From Nitrospirota bacterium (GTDB lineage Bacteria > Nitrospinota_A > UBA7883), in assembly GCA_024275315.1 (NCBI GenBank), contig JAJRZK010000049.1:74577-138576 (forward strand): DNA of 64,000 nucleotides. The letters are read 5' to 3'. The translations under genes and the position numbers were made by a program. The notes beneath the pieces are model-generated. The model had not been told where the DNA came from. It ran no database searches and saw only the letters and a list, made by a program, of their open reading frames with translations. Position 1 is the first letter of the stretch, and each line of letters begins with the position of its first letter. Shown one piece after another: positions 10,433-58,597 of the stretch.

Positions 10433-11986
10433 ATGAAATTTAATATTTTAGGCAGAATCAGGATCAGGGCAAGGCTGATTATCGGCCTTGGCATACTGGT
10501 TTTGATGCTTGTTTACACCGGTGTGATGTGGCGCATCGCCTCGAAAAATATCATCAAGGGGCTTTACGACATCAGCGAAGTCCACTATCCACTCGCCGAA
10601 GCCAGCATGGAAATGCAAATGGCCATAATCCAGGTCCAGCAGTATTTCACCGATTTGTCCCTGAGCGGCGCGAAAAAGGATGAAAAAGAGGCTAACCGGT
10701 GGAAAGATCATTTCACGAAATACGCCCTTAAGGCCAGTGAAATCGCCGTAAACGACAAGATGAAAAAACAGATAGCCGACATCATGAATGATTTTGACAA
10801 ATATTTCAAAATGGCTGATGTCATGTCCAAGATTTACGCCGCCGAAGAGGACGAGGCGGGGTCGAGCATCAAAGTGGACGTGGACGCGTTTGTCGAGATC
10901 CTTCGCGGCAAGATCAACAACATTGTCAACATGACCAAGGCGAACATGATTGTGACCCTCGGGGAGACAAAGCGCATCACCAACACCACCGCCACCAGCA
11001 ACAACCTGCTTACCCTGATGATGTCGGTTATATCGATCGTCCTGGCGCTGATGCTGGCCAACTCCATCACCAGCCCCATCAACGACATAATTGTCAGGCT
11101 CAGGGCCATTGCCGAAGAGAGCGTCGCGGACCTGTCCAAAAGCATCAACGTGGAATCCAACGACGAGATTTCCGAGGTGGGTCAACTGTTCAACCAGTTC
11201 GTGGGAAAGATAAGGGCGCTTATAATACGGCTTGCCGATATGGCCGAGCACCTGGCCTCCGCCACGACGGAGCTTTCCGCCACGACAGAGCAGTTTTCGG
11301 GTCAGGCCAGGAGCCAGGCGGACCAGGTAAACCACATCACCCGCGACATAGAAGAGGTGAACAAGGCCGTGGCCAACATAGCCAGCAGGGCTGTGGACGT
11401 GGCTCGCACCTCCACGGAAACCCACGAGCTGGCTCTTGACGGCGGCAAAGTCATAAACAACAGTTCCGACGCTATAAAAAAGCTTTCGGACTATTCTTCC
11501 AAGATAGGCAACATTCTCCTTGTGATAGAGGACATAGCGAAAAAGACCGACCTGCTGGCGATCAACGCGGCCATCGAAGCCGCCAACGCTGGTGACCAGG
11601 GCAAAGGGTTTGCCGTGGTGGCCGAAGAGGTGAGAAAGCTGGCGGAGCGCACGACGCGGTCCATCGGCGAAATCAGCCGCATGATACAGGACATCCAGAC
11701 GTTCACGTCGGAAGCCGTCGATTCCATGAAGCACTCCAGCCAGGTGATGAGCAAGATCATTATCGAAGCCACGCAGGTCAACCAGATGATAGACGAGATC
11801 GCCGCGTCCACCGAGAAACAATCGGGGATAACCAACGGCATGTTGAAAAACGTGAGGTCTGTCCACGAGCTGAGCCAGGGGTTCGCTGAGCAGGCGGAAC
11901 AGTCCGAACAGGTCGCCAACGAGATTAACAACCAGTCGCTGAAACTGCAAAATGTCGTGGATGAGTTCAACGTTAATTCCAGGTAG
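10433..11986 (+). CDS. Methyl-accepting chemotaxis protein (2 TM, periplasmic helical sensor, HAMP, MCP signalling domain)
   Basis: ATG at 10433 is preceded by AGGGGC (the track's GTG at 10397 is an alternative). Conserved 'LLAINAAIEAANAGDQGKGFAVVAEEVRKLAERT'. Confidence 0.85.
   Translation: MKFNILGRIRIRARLIIGLGILVLMLVYTGVMWRIASKNIIKGLYDISEVHYPLAEASMEMQMAIIQVQQYFTDLSLSGAKKDEKEANRWKDHFTKYALKASEIAVNDKMKKQIADIMNDFDKYFKMADVMSKIYAAEEDEAGSSIKVDVDAFVEILRGKINNIVNMTKANMIVTLGETKRITNTTATSNNLLTLMMSVISIVLALMLANSITSPINDIIVRLRAIAEESVADLSKSINVESNDEISEVGQLFNQFVGKIRALIIRLADMAEHLASATTELSATTEQFSGQARSQADQVNHITRDIEEVNKAVANIASRAVDVARTSTETHELALDGGKVINNSSDAIKKLSDYSSKIGNILLVIEDIAKKTDLLAINAAIEAANAGDQGKGFAVVAEEVRKLAERTTRSIGEISRMIQDIQTFTSEAVDSMKHSSQVMSKIIIEATQVNQMIDEIAASTEKQSGITNGMLKNVRSVHELSQGFAEQAEQSEQVANEINNQSLKLQNVVDEFNVNSR
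11240..11950 (+). repeat. Copy 1 of an about 0.7-kb near-identical duplicated segment (MCP signalling domain)
   Basis: Nucleotide-level near-identity with 12880-13585, e.g. 'gccgagcacctggcctccgccacgacggagctttccgccacgacagagcagttttc'. Confidence 0.8.
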
Positions 11987-12077: not shown

Positions 12078-13793
12078 ATGGCCGGAAAACTGCACTTCTC
12101 AAAATCACTGAAATTCAGGCTCCTGGTCCTGATAGGCCTGCTTTTTACACTATTTTCCATCTTCAACATGTACATCGCCGTATCCGACCAGAGACAGCAG
12201 GCGCTGAAACAGGCCCGAACAATTTCCGAGAGCGCCGCCAACGCCATGCTTAACGCTTTGAACATTATGATGATCCAGGACACCATCGCCCAGCGGAAAC
12301 AGTTTTTGCGGATGATGAAAGACAACCTCGGTTTCGACGAGATCAGGGTTTTCAGGAGTGAATCGGTCACAAGGCAATATGGTCCCGGGCTTGAAGGTGA
12401 ACAACCGGTGAACAGCGCCGAAAAAGAAGTGCTTGAAAACGGGAAACCAAGGTTCGATGTCATCAAAACCCCGCAAGGCAGGAAATTCCGCGCGATGGTC
12501 CCTTTCCTGATGGTCAAGGACAGGTCCGGCGTCAACTGTCTGGATTGTCATGACGGAAAAGTCGGCACCGTAAACGGCGGTGTGAGCATCCTGATGGGCA
12601 TGAAAGAGATAGACGCCGCGCTTTTCACCAACCTCACCGAGCTTGTCATCATCAATCTGCTGGGGCTGGTGGCTCTTCTGGCGAGTATATTGTTCATCCA
12701 GCAAAAGCTGGTTCTCGGTCCCCTGTCCACCATGCGCGAAACCATGGAGTCCGTGGAGCGCGACTCCGACCTGCGCAGGAGTATCGAGATTAAGTCTGAT
12801 AACGAAGTGGGCATGATGTCGAGCGCGTTTAACAAGATGATGCAAAAATTCCAGGCCATCATCGGCCAGATGGCCAGAACAGCCGAGCACCTGGCCTCCG
12901 CCACGACGGAGCTTTCCGCCACGACAGAGCAGTTTTCAAGCCAGGCCAGGAGCCAGGCGGACCAGGTAAACCACATCACCCGCGATATAGAAGAGGTGAA
13001 CAAGGCCGTGGCCAACATAGCTCAAAGCACCGTGGATGTGGCTCGCACCTCCACGCAAACCCACGAGCTGGCCCTCGACGGCGGCAAAGTCATAAACAAC
13101 AGTTCCTACGCCATAAAAAAGCTTTCGGACTATTCCTCCAAGATAGGCAATATCCTTCTCGTGGTGGAGGACATAGCGAAAAAGACCGACCTGCTGGCGA
13201 TCAACGCGGCCATCGAAGCCGCCAACGCTGGTGAACAGGGCAAAGGTTTCGCCGTGGTGGCCGAGGAGGTGAGAAAGCTGGCGGAGCGCACGACGCGGTC
13301 CATCGGCGAAATCAGCCGCATGATACAGGACATCCGGTCGTTCACGTCGGAAGCTGTCGATTCCATGAAGCATTCCAGTGAAGTCATGAACAAGATCATT
13401 CTTGAAACGACCAGGGTCAACGAAATGGTGGACGGGATAGCGACCTCCACCGACAAGCAATCGGGAATAACCAGCGGCATGCTGGCGAAAGTAAGATCGG
13501 TCCACGAGCTGAGCCAGGGGTTCGCCGCGCAGGCGGAACAGTCCGAACAGGTCGCCAACGAGATTAACGACCAGTCGCTGAAACTTCAGGAATGGGTCGA
13601 CCAGTTCCACATAGACTACAAATCGTACGGCGACCCGTCCGACGGGGGCGGCCTGTCCGACGGGGGCGGCCCGTCCGACGGGGGCGGCCTGTCCGACGGG
13701 GGCGGCCTGTCCGACGGGGGCGGCCTGTCCGCTGGGGGCGGCCCGCCCGACGACAGGAAAATCGACGAGATGGACCAACCCTGGACGAGATGA
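12078..13793 (+). CDS. Methyl-accepting chemotaxis protein with periplasmic CXXCH (c-type heme) sensor domain and a C-terminal (SDGGGL)n repeat tail
   Basis: TM1 'FRLLVLIGLLFTLFSIF'. Periplasmic 'GVNCLDCHDG'. TM2, HAMP, and a signalling domain about 95% identical to the upstream MCP. C-terminus 'DGGGLSDGGGPSDGGGLSDGGGLSDGGGLSAGGGPPDD'. Confidence 0.85.
   Translation: MAGKLHFSKSLKFRLLVLIGLLFTLFSIFNMYIAVSDQRQQALKQARTISESAANAMLNALNIMMIQDTIAQRKQFLRMMKDNLGFDEIRVFRSESVTRQYGPGLEGEQPVNSAEKEVLENGKPRFDVIKTPQGRKFRAMVPFLMVKDRSGVNCLDCHDGKVGTVNGGVSILMGMKEIDAALFTNLTELVIINLLGLVALLASILFIQQKLVLGPLSTMRETMESVERDSDLRRSIEIKSDNEVGMMSSAFNKMMQKFQAIIGQMARTAEHLASATTELSATTEQFSSQARSQADQVNHITRDIEEVNKAVANIAQSTVDVARTSTQTHELALDGGKVINNSSYAIKKLSDYSSKIGNILLVVEDIAKKTDLLAINAAIEAANAGEQGKGFAVVAEEVRKLAERTTRSIGEISRMIQDIRSFTSEAVDSMKHSSEVMNKIILETTRVNEMVDGIATSTDKQSGITSGMLAKVRSVHELSQGFAAQAEQSEQVANEINDQSLKLQEWVDQFHIDYKSYGDPSDGGGLSDGGGPSDGGGLSDGGGLSDGGGLSAGGGPPDDRKIDEMDQPWTR
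12880..13585 (+). repeat. Copy 2 of the duplicated MCP signalling-domain segment
   Basis: See copy 1. Only scattered substitutions. Confidence 0.8.
13632..13752 (+). repeat. 18-bp tandem repeat (about 6.5 copies) encoding the (S/P)DGGGL tail of the MCP
   Basis: 'ccgtccgacgggggcggc' / 'ctgtccgacgggggcggc' units are visible directly in the sequence. Confidence 0.85.
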
Positions 13794-17183: not shown

Positions 17184-17187
17184 CGGC

Positions 17188-17452
17188 TGGTTTCGAACGG
17201 AACGGCCTGTCTTACCGGGCTGTCACTATCGATAAATTGATATCCGCATAAAAGAATAGCTGCTGGTTCCGGGCGAAACGGTCTGTCTTGCCGGGCTGTC
17301 ACTATCGATAAATTGATATCCGCATAAAAGAATAGCTGCTGGTTTCGAACAGAACGGCCTGTCTTACCGGGCTGTCACTATCGATAAATTGATATCCGCA
17401 CAAAGAATAGCGGCTGACCCCGGGCGGAACGGTCTGCTTTACCTGTGGGTGT
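17188..17452. repeat. Intergenic tandem repeat, 76-bp unit x about 3.5, between convergent helicase and yqgE-like genes
   Basis: Units at 17188-17263, 17264-17339 and 17340-17414, plus a partial fourth. Unit core 'gtcttaccgggctgtcactatcgataaattgatatccgcataaaagaatagc'. Confidence 0.8.
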
Positions 17453-18116
17453 ATTGCGGATTTTTTCCGGTTGGGGAGAATATCCATTGTTCGGGTTTCG
17501 GCTCAAACGACAGGTCCCGCCACAGGTGGGAAATATCTTTCCTGAAAATTTCATCAACCCTCGCCTTGAAGATTTTCCAGTCTCCCCGGGCGATCTCATA
17601 ATCGAGCTGGCCGGGAGCCCATCCGGAATACCCGGCGTATCCCCTGGCGTCGGTTCCCGGGGTTTTGAAAAGGTGGGCCAGCTTTTTTATGTTTACACTG
17701 ATAAACACGTCGCCAAACACTTTGTCGGTTTCGTCCGCGGCGGGCTTTTCCTTGCTTCGAAACAGCATGACGAACATGTTCGAAGAGACCGGCCCGCCGT
17801 AATAAAGCAACTCGTCCAGACTTTGTAGCTCGTCTATGTCGGGTAGGGCGCGCGCAAGGGAAACGTCGGTCGGGTGATTGATGATAATCCCCACGGAGCC
17901 GTCTGCGCCATAATGGGTGATGAGGATGACGGATTGGTAAAAACGTGGATCGGGCATCTCCTTGTTTGCCACCAGGAACACTCCCTGCGCCGGGTCTATC
18001 TTTAAACCGGAGCTTCTCCCGTGAGACAATCCCGTCGCGGCTGTCGGGGTTGGCGTGGAGAGGATCGCAAATATTGCAAAATGGGATGAAAACAGGAGCC
18101 CGGCTATTTGTTTCAT
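17439..18116 (-). CDS. YqgE/AlgH-family (UPF0301) protein with N-terminal signal/anchor
   Basis: 'FLVANKEMPDPRFYQSVILITHYGADGSVGIIINHP' is typical of AlgH/YqgE. The 3' end runs into the 76-bp repeat array. Confidence 0.65.
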   Translation of the reverse strand: MKQIAGLLFSSHFAIFAILSTPTPTAATGLSHGRSSGLKIDPAQGVFLVANKEMPDPRFYQSVILITHYGADGSVGIIINHPTDVSLARALPDIDELQSLDELLYYGGPVSSNMFVMLFRSKEKPAADETDKVFGDVFISVNIKKLAHLFKTPGTDARGYAGYSGWAPGQLDYEIARGDWKIFKARVDEIFRKDISHLWRDLSFEPKPEQWIFSPTGKNPQYTHR

Positions 18117-18311
18117 ACGCGACCACTCAGGATATATCTGTTAATCAGCCTCCTAGCCTAACGCAAAAAAAGGGCTATTAAAACGAAAAATTCTCTCTTT
18201 ATACGCACACCGGTCACGCCTGAAATGTGCATGCCGAAAAAATAAAAAAAACATCCATAAAGCCTCCGGCCGCGGCGGAATTGATGTAGAATTGAAAACG
18301 TCGGTTTTAAC

Positions 18312-18660
18312 TATCGCCCTCGCGACTCGGGTGTCGCCCTCGCGACTCGGGTGTCGCCCTCGCGACTCGGGTGTCGCCCTCGCGACTCGGGTGTCGCCCT
18401 CGCGACTTGGGTGCCACACTCGCGACTTGGGTGCCACACTCGCGACTTGGGTGCCACACTCGCGACTTGGGTGTCACACTCGCGACTTGGGTGTCACACT
18501 CGCGACTTGGGTGCCACACTCGCGACTTGGGTGCCACACTCGCGACTCGGGTGTCGCCCTCGCGACTCGGGTGTCGCCCTCGCGACTCGGGTGTCGCCCT
18601 CGCGACTTGGGTGTCGCCCTCGCGACTTGGGTGTCGCCCTCGCGACTTGGGTGTCGTCGG
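18312..18660. repeat. GC-rich 20-bp minisatellite, about 17 copies, with block-ordered unit variants, upstream of a diheme cytochrome c gene
   Basis: Perfect 20-nt register. Units A 'cgcgactcgggtgtcgccct' x4, B 'cgcgacttgggtgccacact' x3, C 'cgcgacttgggtgtcacact' x2, B x2, A x3, D 'cgcgacttgggtgtcgccct' x2, then a degenerate unit. Confidence 0.9.
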
Positions 18661-18720
18661 GTTTGCTTTATGGACGCGCCATCGAAATATCCGGCTGTAG
18701 CCCTGAATCATGGTCAGATA

Positions 18721-19638
18721 ATGGCAGTATATGTTTTGTCACGCGTAAAGGTGAGCGGTACGAACTCGCGCCGTTCCAACGCCGCTTCAAGACCGTTTTC
18801 GCCGGTCACGGTTGCGTGCCTTGTTTTGGTAATGGCGTTATTATCCATCCCCTGCGGATCGTTTGCCACGCCCGGTTCTGTGGAGAACGGCGCCGCGCTT
18901 TACATGGTGCATTGCGTCCAGTGTCACGGGCCCGGGGGCAAAGGCGATGGAACAGCGGCCCAATACCTGCCAAGGCGGCCAAGGGATTTTACCGAAGGGT
19001 TGTACAAGATAAAAACAAGCCCGCCGACAACCATGCTCTCCAGGGACGAGGATATTTATTATTCGATAACGAAAGGCATGTCAATAGCCGGAATGCCGCC
19101 GTGGGAAAAAGTTCTCACTGACAAACAAAGGTGGGACCTGGTGGCGTATTTAAAATCCCTTTCGGATTTGTACGACGATGAGCCCAACCCGGAGCCGCTC
19201 GATTTGGGCGGGCGGATTCCACCTTCACCGGACAGTGTAAAACGGGGCAACCGGGCCTATTTCAAGCTGCTTTGCCATGAATGCCATGGTGAGACGGGAC
19301 AGGGACCATCCATTAAAAAGCTCAGGGATGATTACGGCGACAGGATTTGGCCCCGGGACCTGACCAGGACCGACACCTTCATCGGTCCTGCTACACCCGA
19401 TGCGATTTACACCCGCATAACCAACGGCATCCCGCTGACGCCGATGCCTGCACATGTAAAAAACCCGAATAACGATCAGCTCGAGGATCTTAGGTGGGAT
19501 ATAGCCAACTATATAGTCTGGCGGGCCGCTGAAGCGCAGAAACTGAGGAGGGAGAGGATGTTGAAAATCGTGGGCGCGTCCTTGGTTATCCTGGGCGCCG
19601 GCATGATATTCTTTCGGCGCCGTAACGCCAGGGCATAA
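18721..19638 (+). CDS. Diheme c-type cytochrome (class I, c4/CcoP-like) with signal peptide and C-terminal TM anchor
   Basis: 'CVQCHG' and 'CHECHG' heme-binding sites. Hydrophobic 'VACLVLVMALLSIP' near the N-terminus. C-terminal 'LKIVGASLVILGAGMIFF'. The start is uncertain; the track ORF reads through the repeat from 18292. Confidence 0.6.
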   Translation: MAVYVLSRVKVSGTNSRRSNAASRPFSPVTVACLVLVMALLSIPCGSFATPGSVENGAALYMVHCVQCHGPGGKGDGTAAQYLPRRPRDFTEGLYKIKTSPPTTMLSRDEDIYYSITKGMSIAGMPPWEKVLTDKQRWDLVAYLKSLSDLYDDEPNPEPLDLGGRIPPSPDSVKRGNRAYFKLLCHECHGETGQGPSIKKLRDDYGDRIWPRDLTRTDTFIGPATPDAIYTRITNGIPLTPMPAHVKNPNNDQLEDLRWDIANYIVWRAAEAQKLRRERMLKIVGASLVILGAGMIFFRRRNARA

Positions 19639-57132: not shown

Positions 57133-58281
57133 GTGAAGAACAGACAAGAAGCGGAGCGGCTGGAAGAACGTGAGCTTTCATCTGTCGCGTCGATAAGTAG
57201 CAAGACACGCGGCCGCGTCCACCGCGAGGATGAACATCCGTATCGCACCGTATATACACGCGACCGGGACAGGATCATACACTGTTCCGCGTTCCGCAGG
57301 CTCGAATACAAAACTCAGGTTTTCCTCTACAACGAGGGAGACTACTACCGGACCAGGCTGACCCACACCCTGGAAGTGGCCCAGATCGCCCGGTCTATCG
57401 CAAGAGCGTTGTGGCTCAACGAAGACCTGACCGAAGCCATAGCGTTGAGCCACGACATGGGGCATCCCCCCTTCGGCCATTCCGGCGAACAGGCGCTCGA
57501 CGAGTTGATGAGCGGTTCGGGCGGGTTTGAACACAATCACCACACGTTGCGAATCGTGGACCATATAGAGCGCCGCTATCCCGATTTCCGGGGGCTTAAC
57601 CTTTCCTGGGAAACCAGGGAAGCCATCGCAAAGCACTCCGGCAAGCAGGACGACCCGCTATTAGAAGAGTTCGCAGCGTTTTCCCACCCTTCGCTGGAAG
57701 CCCAGATCGTCGACATGGCCGATTCCATAGCCTACAGCAGTCACGACCTGGACGACGGGTTGACTTCGGGCGTCATAAAAGAAGAAGACCTGGAAAATAT
57801 CGCGTTGTGGCGCAAAGCTACATACCTGATCAAAAAGAAAGTCTCCATAACCCGCAACGTCGCCATATACCAGGTGATACGCAGGATCATAGACTCCCAG
57901 GTGGGGGACATGATACGGCAGACGGAGAACAACCTGAAAAGATTCTCGGTGGACTCCGCAGACCAGGTGCGCGCGGCTCCACAAAGGTTGGCCGATTTTT
58001 CCGTCGATTTGCGCCGCGAACAAAAGGAGCTGAAGGATTTTCTGAGGGAAAAAATGTACCGGCACCACAGAGTGATCCGGATGGAGGAAAAAGCGGGCGG
58101 GGTGATAAGGGACCTTTTCAAAGCGTACAAGCGGAGGCCGGGGATGATGCCGGCGAATGTTTACAGCCAGATCGATAACGTGGAGAAGGACAGGCTCATT
58201 TGCGATTATATAGCCGGAATGACGGACCGGTTCGCCTTAGAGGAGCATAACAAGCTTTTCGACTCCCTGTCGCGGGTGTGA
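57133..58281 (+). CDS. dgt: dGTP triphosphohydrolase-like HD-domain protein
   Basis: 'RTRLTHTLEVAQIARSIA', 'HDMGHPPFGH'. Confidence 0.85.
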   Translation: MKNRQEAERLEERELSSVASISSKTRGRVHREDEHPYRTVYTRDRDRIIHCSAFRRLEYKTQVFLYNEGDYYRTRLTHTLEVAQIARSIARALWLNEDLTEAIALSHDMGHPPFGHSGEQALDELMSGSGGFEHNHHTLRIVDHIERRYPDFRGLNLSWETREAIAKHSGKQDDPLLEEFAAFSHPSLEAQIVDMADSIAYSSHDLDDGLTSGVIKEEDLENIALWRKATYLIKKKVSITRNVAIYQVIRRIIDSQVGDMIRQTENNLKRFSVDSADQVRAAPQRLADFSVDLRREQKELKDFLREKMYRHHRVIRMEEKAGGVIRDLFKAYKRRPGMMPANVYSQIDNVEKDRLICDYIAGMTDRFALEEHNKLFDSLSRV

Positions 58282-58379
58282 ACCTGTCGCGGGTGTGAAC
58301 CTGTCGCGGGTGTGAACCTGTCGCAGGTGTGAACCTGTCGCGGGTGTGAACCTGTCGCAGGTGTGAACCTGTCGCGTCG
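58267..58379. repeat. 17-bp tandem repeat (about 6.6 copies) beginning inside the last codons/stop of dgt
   Basis: 'cctgtcgcgggtgtgaa' x6 (two copies carry a g>a change), then a partial unit. The first unit contains the dgt stop codon TGA. Confidence 0.85.
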
Positions 58380-58597
58380 GCTGTTTTGACATGGATGGAA
58401 TTTCATACGACAATATAACAGACGACAACGCGTAAAGAAGTTAAACAAGATACGGCGGGGTTGCAGTGTAGAATATGCGGATATGTCCAAAACGCGGGGC
58501 GTTACCAACGCGGGGCGTTACCCGAGCTTGTCCCCGGGCGGCGTAGACGTTTAAGAGTTCATGGTGACATGCAGGACCAATCGATCGTGACAGACTG

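Follow-up and report, generated by a model that had tools for sequence, protein, structure and literature searches.

A 20-bp minisatellite with block-ordered unit variants upstream of a diheme cytochrome c gene, and its single-copy counterpart in a related lineage

When a non-coding region upstream of a gene is filled by a short sequence repeated many times over, it has to be asked where the repeat came from and whether the number of copies matters to the gene. Both questions are raised by a run of 20-mers in the window (the whole 64,000-nucleotide stretch of DNA that was analysed), which lies in a 604-bp divergent non-coding region between an AlgH/YqgE-like gene and a gene for a membrane-anchored diheme cytochrome c. 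The answer that we consider reasonably probable is that the array is a young, lineage-specific VNTR that arose by slippage of a piece of a conserved leader, that it is probably transcribed, and that its copy number would act through the mRNA leader.

The array and its neighbouring genes

Tandem Repeats Finder (TRF) reports the array at 18314-18656 with a period of 20, 17.1 copies, 96% matches, 0% indels and a score of 504, and a scan of the window with the degenerate 20-mer TCGCGACTYGGGTGYCRCMC returns 17 matches between 18320 and 18659, spaced exactly 20 bp apart and all of them on the + strand, where 0.08 would be expected by chance. With the unit typing and a runs test added, the minisatellite occupies 18314-18659 on the + strand, so that the coordinates of the initial annotation (18312-18660) are correct to within a few bases. 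It is made up of a 6-bp left remnant (TCGCCC), then 16 full 20-bp units, then a terminal variant unit. The period equals the unit length and adjacent units abut directly; with no spacers, this is not a CRISPR array, as had been stated from the outset.

The initial annotation described 17 in-register head-to-tail 20-mers falling into the blocks A4 B3 C2 B2 A3 D2, and retyping of the units gave the same blocks plus one terminal unit, the complete succession being AAAABBBCCBBAAADDE (A4 B3 C2 B2 A3 D2 E1). Unit A reads TCGCGACTCGGGTGTCGCCC, unit B TCGCGACTTGGGTGCCACAC, unit C TCGCGACTTGGGTGTCACAC, unit D TCGCGACTTGGGTGTCGCCC and the terminal unit E, which blends into the right flank, TCGCGACTTGGGTGTCGTCG. 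The variants are joined in the network A-1-D-2-C-1-B, where the numbers are Hamming distances, and unit E is two changes away from D. Their clustering into blocks is not random, as the units form 7 runs, whereas 100,000 permutations of their order gave 12.9 on average (P=0.0006). The array is a real and statistically unambiguous minisatellite, with in-register, head-to-tail units in the range of ~10-100 bp that is usual for minisatellites and VNTRs, and no spacers. It is not of the form of a phase-variable contingency locus, in which perfect copies of a unit of 1-9 bp are repeated, as the unit here is 20 bp and comes in five sequence variants; its position, flanked by two conserved non-coding blocks, is one in which the repeats of contingency loci are found, namely a promoter, 5' UTR or 5' coding region.

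To the left of the array lies the AlgH/YqgE-like gene (17439-18116, - strand; Pfam PF02622, NCBIfam YqgE/AlgH), which is divergently transcribed and starts 198 bp away from the array's left edge. To the right, on the + strand, lies the gene for the diheme c-type cytochrome (18721 or 18751 to 19638), which was delimited from its translation, its homologues, an alignment to the contig L001 described below, and matches to Pfam PF13442 (twice) and PF00034. The protein has two Cytochrome_CBB3 stretches, the motifs CVQCH and CHECH (two CxxCH) and a C-terminal hydrophobic membrane anchor, and the Pfam domains together with the two motifs bear out its first identification as a diheme cytochrome c. For the cytochrome, and for a dGTPase encoded elsewhere in the window, the named homologues come mostly from Nitrospinota/Nitrospinae MAGs, so that the bacterium probably belongs to this group. 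On the 3' side of the cytochrome gene are an unknown 197-aa ORF and a gene for a ResA-like thiol-disulfide oxidoreductase, a gene order that is shared with L001.

The end of the array is 62-92 bp from the candidate start codons of the cytochrome, which are the ATG at 18721 and the GTG at 18751; the distance to the former, given earlier as about 60 bp, measures 62 bp. The codon that aligns with the ATG of the L001 cytochrome is an ACG at 18760. In L001 (2300-2347) a good Shine-Dalgarno sequence, AAAGGTGAG, is followed by the ATG; the window keeps the Shine-Dalgarno-like AAAGGTGAG (18747-18755), yet the ACG replaces the ATG of L001, and the in-frame ATG at 18721 is new, being found where L001 reads ATA.

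As there is no stop triplet in the unit, all three forward frames stay open over the whole array, and ORFs are called over it on the + strand at 18292-19638, 18351-19121 and 18371-18700. The first of these, which runs from a TTG at 18292 across the array and into the cytochrome, could be taken to mean that the array is translated as an N-terminal repeat of a longer cytochrome. An open frame carries little weight where every forward frame is open merely as a result of a stop-free unit, and furthermore a period of 20 is not divisible by three, the repeat peptide would stand ahead of the signal peptide, and the orthologue lacks the array altogether, with its gene starting far downstream after the good Shine-Dalgarno sequence. 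The coding reading is effectively refuted already, and the ORFs are artefacts, as had been suspected at first sight. Since the array makes false ORFs in all forward frames it should be masked by annotation pipelines, and it probably also breaks short-read assemblies.

Origin of the array from a single copy

The closest homologue of the cytochrome, P0001, is 89% identical in amino acid sequence and is encoded on a 5.1-kb JGI metagenome contig, L001, whose upstream region aligns with that of the window on both sides of the array. Where the window has 17 units L001 has exactly one, which reads ...TTTTAACTGTCACACTCGCGGCCCGGGCGTCGTCGGGTTTGC... (in a longer extract ...GGAATTGATGTAGAATTGGAAAAACCGGTTTTAACTGTCACACTCGCGGCCCGGGCGTCGTCGGGTTTGCTTTATGGACGCGG...), and TRF finds no tandem repeats anywhere in L001. 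The left conserved block (18277-18319, + strand) has 93% nucleotide identity to L001, the right conserved leader (18656-18750, + strand) 88% and the cytochrome coding sequence (+ strand, from 18751) 85%. As L001 has a single copy, and as both flanks are no less conserved than the coding sequence, the tandem expansion is specific to the lineage of the window and took place within a conserved promoter/leader, and the same conservation indicates that the non-coding region that received the array is itself under constraint. As is usual for VNTRs, related genomes have different numbers of copies at one and the same locus, here 1 and 17, although the lineages compared are ~85-89% identical and are not strains. 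The comparison is made with one close relative, so that the change in copy number is one seen between two lineages and not within a population. It nonetheless provides a clean before-and-after pair, in which otherwise conserved flanks enclose 1 or 17 copies.

Similarity to L001 sets in sharply at 18277, and the DNA to the left of this position does not align. Synteny with L001 (1957-2112 and upstream) stops right at the left edge of the promoter-like block, and at this point L001 carries a 51-aa ORF and a PgaD-domain gene in place of the AlgH-like gene; the different left neighbours therefore point to a rearrangement in one of the two lineages.

How one copy may have become 17 is suggested by the anatomy of the L001 copy, in which the trinucleotide GTC recurs exactly 20 nt on (GTCACACTCGCGGCCCGGGC followed by GTCG). 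Of the L001-like junctions, the left one, GTCACAC, is retained in unit C and the right one, GTCGTCGGG, in the terminal unit, and from these junctions the first slippage was probably by way of the GTC microhomology. On this view, 20 bp of the conserved promoter/leader that serves the diheme cytochrome c operon would first have been duplicated, probably by slipped-strand mispairing between GTCs 20 nt apart, and then amplified to 17 copies through further slippage or unequal recombination. Point variants born in single units would have spread locally, leaving homogeneous nested blocks, whilst single-strand hairpins of the quasi-palindromic unit may have favoured more slippage. The expansion by slipped-strand events or unequal crossover that was proposed from the block pattern thus gains support, as regards local tandem expansion, from the single-copy orthologous locus between conserved flanks; the origin of the array is thus well supported, with slippage remaining the presumed mechanism. 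If this is correct, the window and L001 would together show the birth of a minisatellite from a 3-nt microhomology inside a functional leader.

The single copy in L001 also bears on the idea that the units are there to be bound by a protein, be it as origin iterons, as an operator or decoy for a TCGCGA-binding factor, or as tandem sigma-54 promoters directed toward the AlgH-like gene. A TCGCGA palindrome does occur every 20 bp, there is an AT-rich stretch just left of the array, and the five B units (18402-18536, - strand) read TGGCAC-N5-TCGC, the only such matches in 64 kb, where 0.38 would be expected. The one copy of the relative, however, has the non-palindromic TCGCGG and lacks TGGCAC, so any such site would be new; in addition, no replication initiator gene lies nearby, the cumulative GC skew has no turning point near 18 kb, and the sigma-54-like match is confined to one unit variant and lacks the consensus TTGC. 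It would seem very unlikely, on this evidence, that the array is a set of binding sites.

The B-unit motif does have sigma-54-like -24/-12 spacing and points toward the AlgH-like gene, and sigma-54 promoters were considered for this reason. They were set aside, since neither the ancestral-type copy nor the other unit types have the motif, which is treated as a by-product. Iterons were likewise rejected, given neighbours that are AlgH-like, DEAD-box helicase, cytochrome c and ResA-like genes, a GC skew with no turning point here, and one copy in the relative.

A second array and the question of a dispersed family

The window holds four arrays with a TRF score of at least 199, and one of them had been noted at first inspection to resemble the 20-mer. 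This array (58266-58376, + strand, TRF) has 6.5 copies of the 17-bp unit CCTGTCGCGGGTGTGAA, and its first unit holds the last codons and the TGA stop of the dGTPase gene (57133-58281). The core said to be common to both arrays is real: in reverse complement the 17-mer reads TTCACACCCGCGACAGG and agrees with unit C at 13/17 positions, ungapped, through the 13-nt core TCACACYCGCGAC, which the 17-bp array therefore carries in reverse orientation relative to the 20-mer. In shuffles the similarity of the 17-mer to unit C has a P of 0.003, and its similarity to the remaining variants one of 0.02-0.08; after correction for four unit variants and six array pairs the similarity is not significant. Within the 64 kb the core is found in these two arrays only, apart from one chance site with two mismatches in a tRNA gene.

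Dispersed families of short repeats are well known in bacteria and include the heptamer STRR repeats of cyanobacteria, the REP/BIME elements and the mycobacterial MIRU loci, which are MLVA-type VNTRs with units of 40-100 bp forming a dispersed family at many loci. The present array is like STRR, REP and BIME in its short, GC-rich, partly palindromic intergenic units, and in that a 13-nt core is shared between two arrays of the window. Like the MLVA VNTRs it is an intergenic tandem array with units of tens of bp, a copy number that differs between related genomes and an origin attributed to slippage or recombination. Should it belong to such a dispersed or mobile family (REP/BIME- or STRR-like), a related element would have been inserted at both sites of the window, and the shared core, its restriction to these two arrays and the 13/17 match to unit C could all be read in this way.

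A dispersed family should be present in many copies at unrelated loci, as REP/BIME, STRR and MIRU are, and within the 64-kb window and a scan of GTDB this was not what was found. Outside the array there is no copy of the 20-mer unit in the 64 kb even at 3 mismatches, and thus no solitary copy in the window. A scan of GTDB with one genome per species (185,579 genomes) gave 20 isolated single hits, about the estimated chance number, and no arrays; the hits fall in unrelated high-GC taxa, among them Actinomycetota, Chloroflexota and Myxococcota. Viral contigs scanned for the unit gave no match, nor did metagenome contigs scanned for the unit junction, which is a weak negative as the same collection also missed a 19-mer flank that is present in the L001 contig. 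The flanks of the 20-bp and 17-bp arrays are unrelated to each other (P=0.54 and 0.97), and a larger element shared around both arrays is ruled out on these grounds.

Against insertion stands the relative, which has locus-native sequence at both places. On a second contig from the same sample as L001, L026, whose dGTPase is 91% identical in amino acid sequence, there are 2.3 diverged copies of the 17-mer in the same place (11134-11172), again beginning in the dGTPase stop codon, where the window has 6.5 near-identical ones, and at the cytochrome locus there is the one leader copy. As the relative has native copies at each locus, both arrays have grown from the sequence of their own locus in the lineage of the window, and unlike STRR, REP/BIME and MIRU, the unit here is locus-specific and no dispersion was detected. 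With no extra copies in the window, chance-level hits in GTDB, no viral match, unrelated flanks, locus-native origins and a similarity that is not significant once corrected, the proposal of a dispersed repeat family is not supported, and we regard an origin from such a family as highly improbable.

The simplest reading is that the genome is prone to tandem expansion, rather than host to a mobile repeat family; in the relative, by comparison, tandem repeats are almost lacking from the 21-kb and 5-kb loci. A more elaborate proposal, which is speculative and in our view improbable, would make the amplification directed by the motif: an ancestral copy of TCACACYCGCGAC at each locus would be bound by a protein, or form a hairpin, that stalls replication and seeds slippage, and the array in the 5' UTR would be a tunable control sensitive to a double-strand RNase. 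Were this true, a contingency-type mechanism would be at work in an environmental bacterium, beyond the host-associated pathogens that are known for such loci.

The two remaining arrays of the window show no similarity to the core (P=0.87 for the 18-bp and 0.77 for the 76-bp array). The former has 6.9 copies of the 18-bp unit GGCGGCCTGTCCGACGGG at 13629-13752, in frame within the C-terminal part of a gene for a methyl-accepting chemotaxis protein (MCP; 12078-13793), and encodes a six-residue GGLSDG repeat, the frame being read by eye. The latter has 3.1 copies of a 76-bp unit (89% matches) at 17186-17416 and fills the convergent gap between the stop of a DEAD-box helicase gene (17183) and the stop of the AlgH-like gene (17439); each unit contains the palindromes TATCGATA and GATATC, with no similarity to the 20-mer. 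Next to the 17-bp array, on its 3' side, ~150 bp of the window (~58415-58560) is missing from L026 (~11215-11235), and inside this stretch is a perfect 16-bp repeat in two copies, AACGCGGGGCGTTACC (58491-58522).

Transcription, folding and possible effects of copy number

Whether copy number could matter to the cytochrome gene depends on where the promoter lies. The conserved left block (18277-18313, + strand, 93% identical to L001; motifs read by eye) looks promoter-like, a description that is based on its conservation and on a hexamer seen by eye, the -10-like TAGAAT at 18287-18292. It also has a direct repeat GAATTG-N5-GAATTG (18278-18294) with an 11-bp period, and a conserved TTTTAACT at 18305-18312, just ahead of the array. 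A consensus scan for sigma-70 promoters and terminators gave nothing useful in the intergenic region and called no promoter on the + strand from 18117 to 18720. With the promoter-like block on its 5' side, the array probably forms part of the 5' UTR, and if the block is indeed the promoter then transcription probably starts at or just before the first unit.

It was suggested at the outset that copy number might modulate promoter spacing. In such an arrangement the left block would be an activator site and the core promoter would be 3' of the array, so that copy number would set the distance or helical phase between them and hence transcription, with a possible influence on the divergent promoter of the AlgH-like gene. 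Direct repeats with an 11-bp period are typical of response-regulator sites and the block is 93% conserved, the conserved right leader could hold a promoter, and 20 bp is close to two helical turns, which would roughly keep the phase as copies are added. An activator site that is shifted by ~320 bp from its ancestral place would, however, normally abolish class I/II activation; no sigma-70-like promoter was called 3' of the array, where the best candidates found by eye match at no more than 6/12 positions, and the conserved TAGAAT and TTTTAACT on the 5' side fit an upstream promoter. A role in promoter spacing is possible and is not the reading we favour, being in our estimate distinctly unlikely, and the promoter-like block upstream places the array more probably in the transcribed leader.

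The promoter-like block and the array are bracketed by a perfect 10-nt inverted repeat, TCCATAAAGC and GCTTTATGGA (18254-18263 and 18665-18674). It was not taken to be meaningful, as it is about as likely as not to arise by chance (~0.2 pairs estimated in 681 nt) and its left arm is absent from L001.

If the array is transcribed, its structure becomes relevant. The unit is quasi-palindromic, with the TCGCGA palindrome, the arms GCGAC/GTCGC in units A and D, and GGGTG opposite CGCCC. For the sense RNA of array and leader a free energy of -221 kcal/mol is predicted (z=-5.1; 0/100 shuffles as stable), in the form of one long imperfect fold-back with the C block at its centre and arms of ~150 nt, whereas the predicted fold of the antisense RNA is weaker (-155 kcal/mol, z=-1.9); for the single-stranded DNA the prediction is -94 kcal/mol (z=-3.6). 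A transcribed array would, on these predictions, be a long double-stranded RNA, and the self-complementarity plausibly explains why the array is prone to slippage.

The predictions give no evidence that this structure was selected for. The array alone is predicted at -188 kcal/mol, compared with -183±2 for permuted unit orders, of which 6/200 are as stable, so that the actual order, with its symmetric A-B-C-B-A, is predicted to add just ~5 kcal/mol, and much of the fold-back energy follows from the composition of the units. Homogeneous arrays of B or C come to -161 and -148 kcal/mol, compared with -221 for A. Since the GCGAC/GTCGC hairpin is lost in units B and C, whose folds are weaker than those of A and D, there is no clear sign of selection for RNA structure. 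Rfam covariance models gave no hit at the gathering threshold in the region, and with E-values up to 10 only noise, none of it in the array. Two other structured or regulatory forms were considered and rejected, a G-quadruplex, as there is one GGG per 20 nt and the loops would be 17 nt, and a CsrA-type sponge RNA, as the unit has no GGA on either strand.

Two known systems offer a comparison. In the colibactin island of E. coli, clbR has in its 5' UTR an 8-bp VNTR (ACAGATAC, 2-20 copies), placed between the divergent genes clbR and clbB and 3' of the mapped transcription start, and expression is ~2-fold higher at 20 copies than at 5 (PMC7364221). In Haemophilus influenzae, the 7-bp (ATCTTTC)n repeat of hmw1A/hmw2A forms a transcribed 5'-UTR hairpin that is cut by RNase III, and the hairpin is needed for the effect of copy number (PMC12721329). 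The array described here resembles that of clbR in being a head-to-tail repeat in a divergent intergenic region, with a copy number of 17 where clbR reaches ~20, and differs in having a unit of 20 bp rather than 8 bp that is GC-rich, quasi-palindromic and present as block-ordered variants. As with hmw1A/hmw2A, the repeat is upstream of the gene, and its sense strand is predicted to form an even longer fold-back; the hmw repeats, however, pair with a separate G-rich arm, whereas this array pairs with itself. Furthermore hmw is a proven phase-variable contingency locus of a host-adapted pathogen, whereas the array is in an environmental, probably Nitrospinota-related genome and, in contrast to both systems, is known from sequence alone.

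These likenesses place the array with the known bacterial VNTRs in 5' leaders, and nothing in it contradicts existing knowledge of tandem repeats. By analogy it may have a regulatory role, and the sequence of events that we favour continues with transcription of the array, which would add ~340 nt to the cytochrome mRNA at the 5' end of its leader. This insert would fold back on itself as a long imperfect hairpin, each arm measuring ~150 nt, and copy number may then alter the stability, processing or translation of the mRNA, for example by making it a substrate for a double-strand RNase, rather than the geometry of the promoter. Expression-tuning repeats in promoters or leaders have been studied extensively in pathogens and, to our knowledge, very little in free-living uncultured lineages, and the locus is a test case for whether a self-pairing insert of ~340 nt shifts the expression of a respiratory cytochrome operon.

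The array could also be selectively neutral, in the sense of a minisatellite made by slippage and tolerated in a non-critical leader, affecting neither the cytochrome gene nor the gene next to it, in a genome that accumulates tandem repeats. The four sizeable arrays in 64 kb, in contexts as different as an MCP gene, a convergent intergenic region, the 3' end of a gene and the cytochrome leader, are what such a genome would have, the relative has no array or few copies, and the unit variants do not preserve the per-unit hairpin. It would seem unlikely, on the other hand, that a GC-rich and strongly self-complementary insert of 340 nt between conserved blocks is wholly without effect on the transcript, and smaller known 5'-UTR repeats do change expression. 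We therefore give neutrality appreciable weight as the less probable outcome; if it holds, the finding is an ordinary one.

More distant orthologues of the cytochrome, which are also in keeping with neutrality in that they are without any long leader, come from four further contigs (L002 and L023-L025; 53-64% amino acid identity). They have no arrays, and their upstream regions are unrelated or very short and so are uninformative on the leader itself; judging from these sequences the array is not a feature of the cytochrome gene family. In three of them (L023, L024 and L025) the diheme cytochrome gene follows 12-37 bp after a gene for haem A synthase (COX15/CtaA) or porphobilinogen deaminase (HemC), neighbours which suggest that the cytochrome is linked to haem or terminal-oxidase biogenesis.
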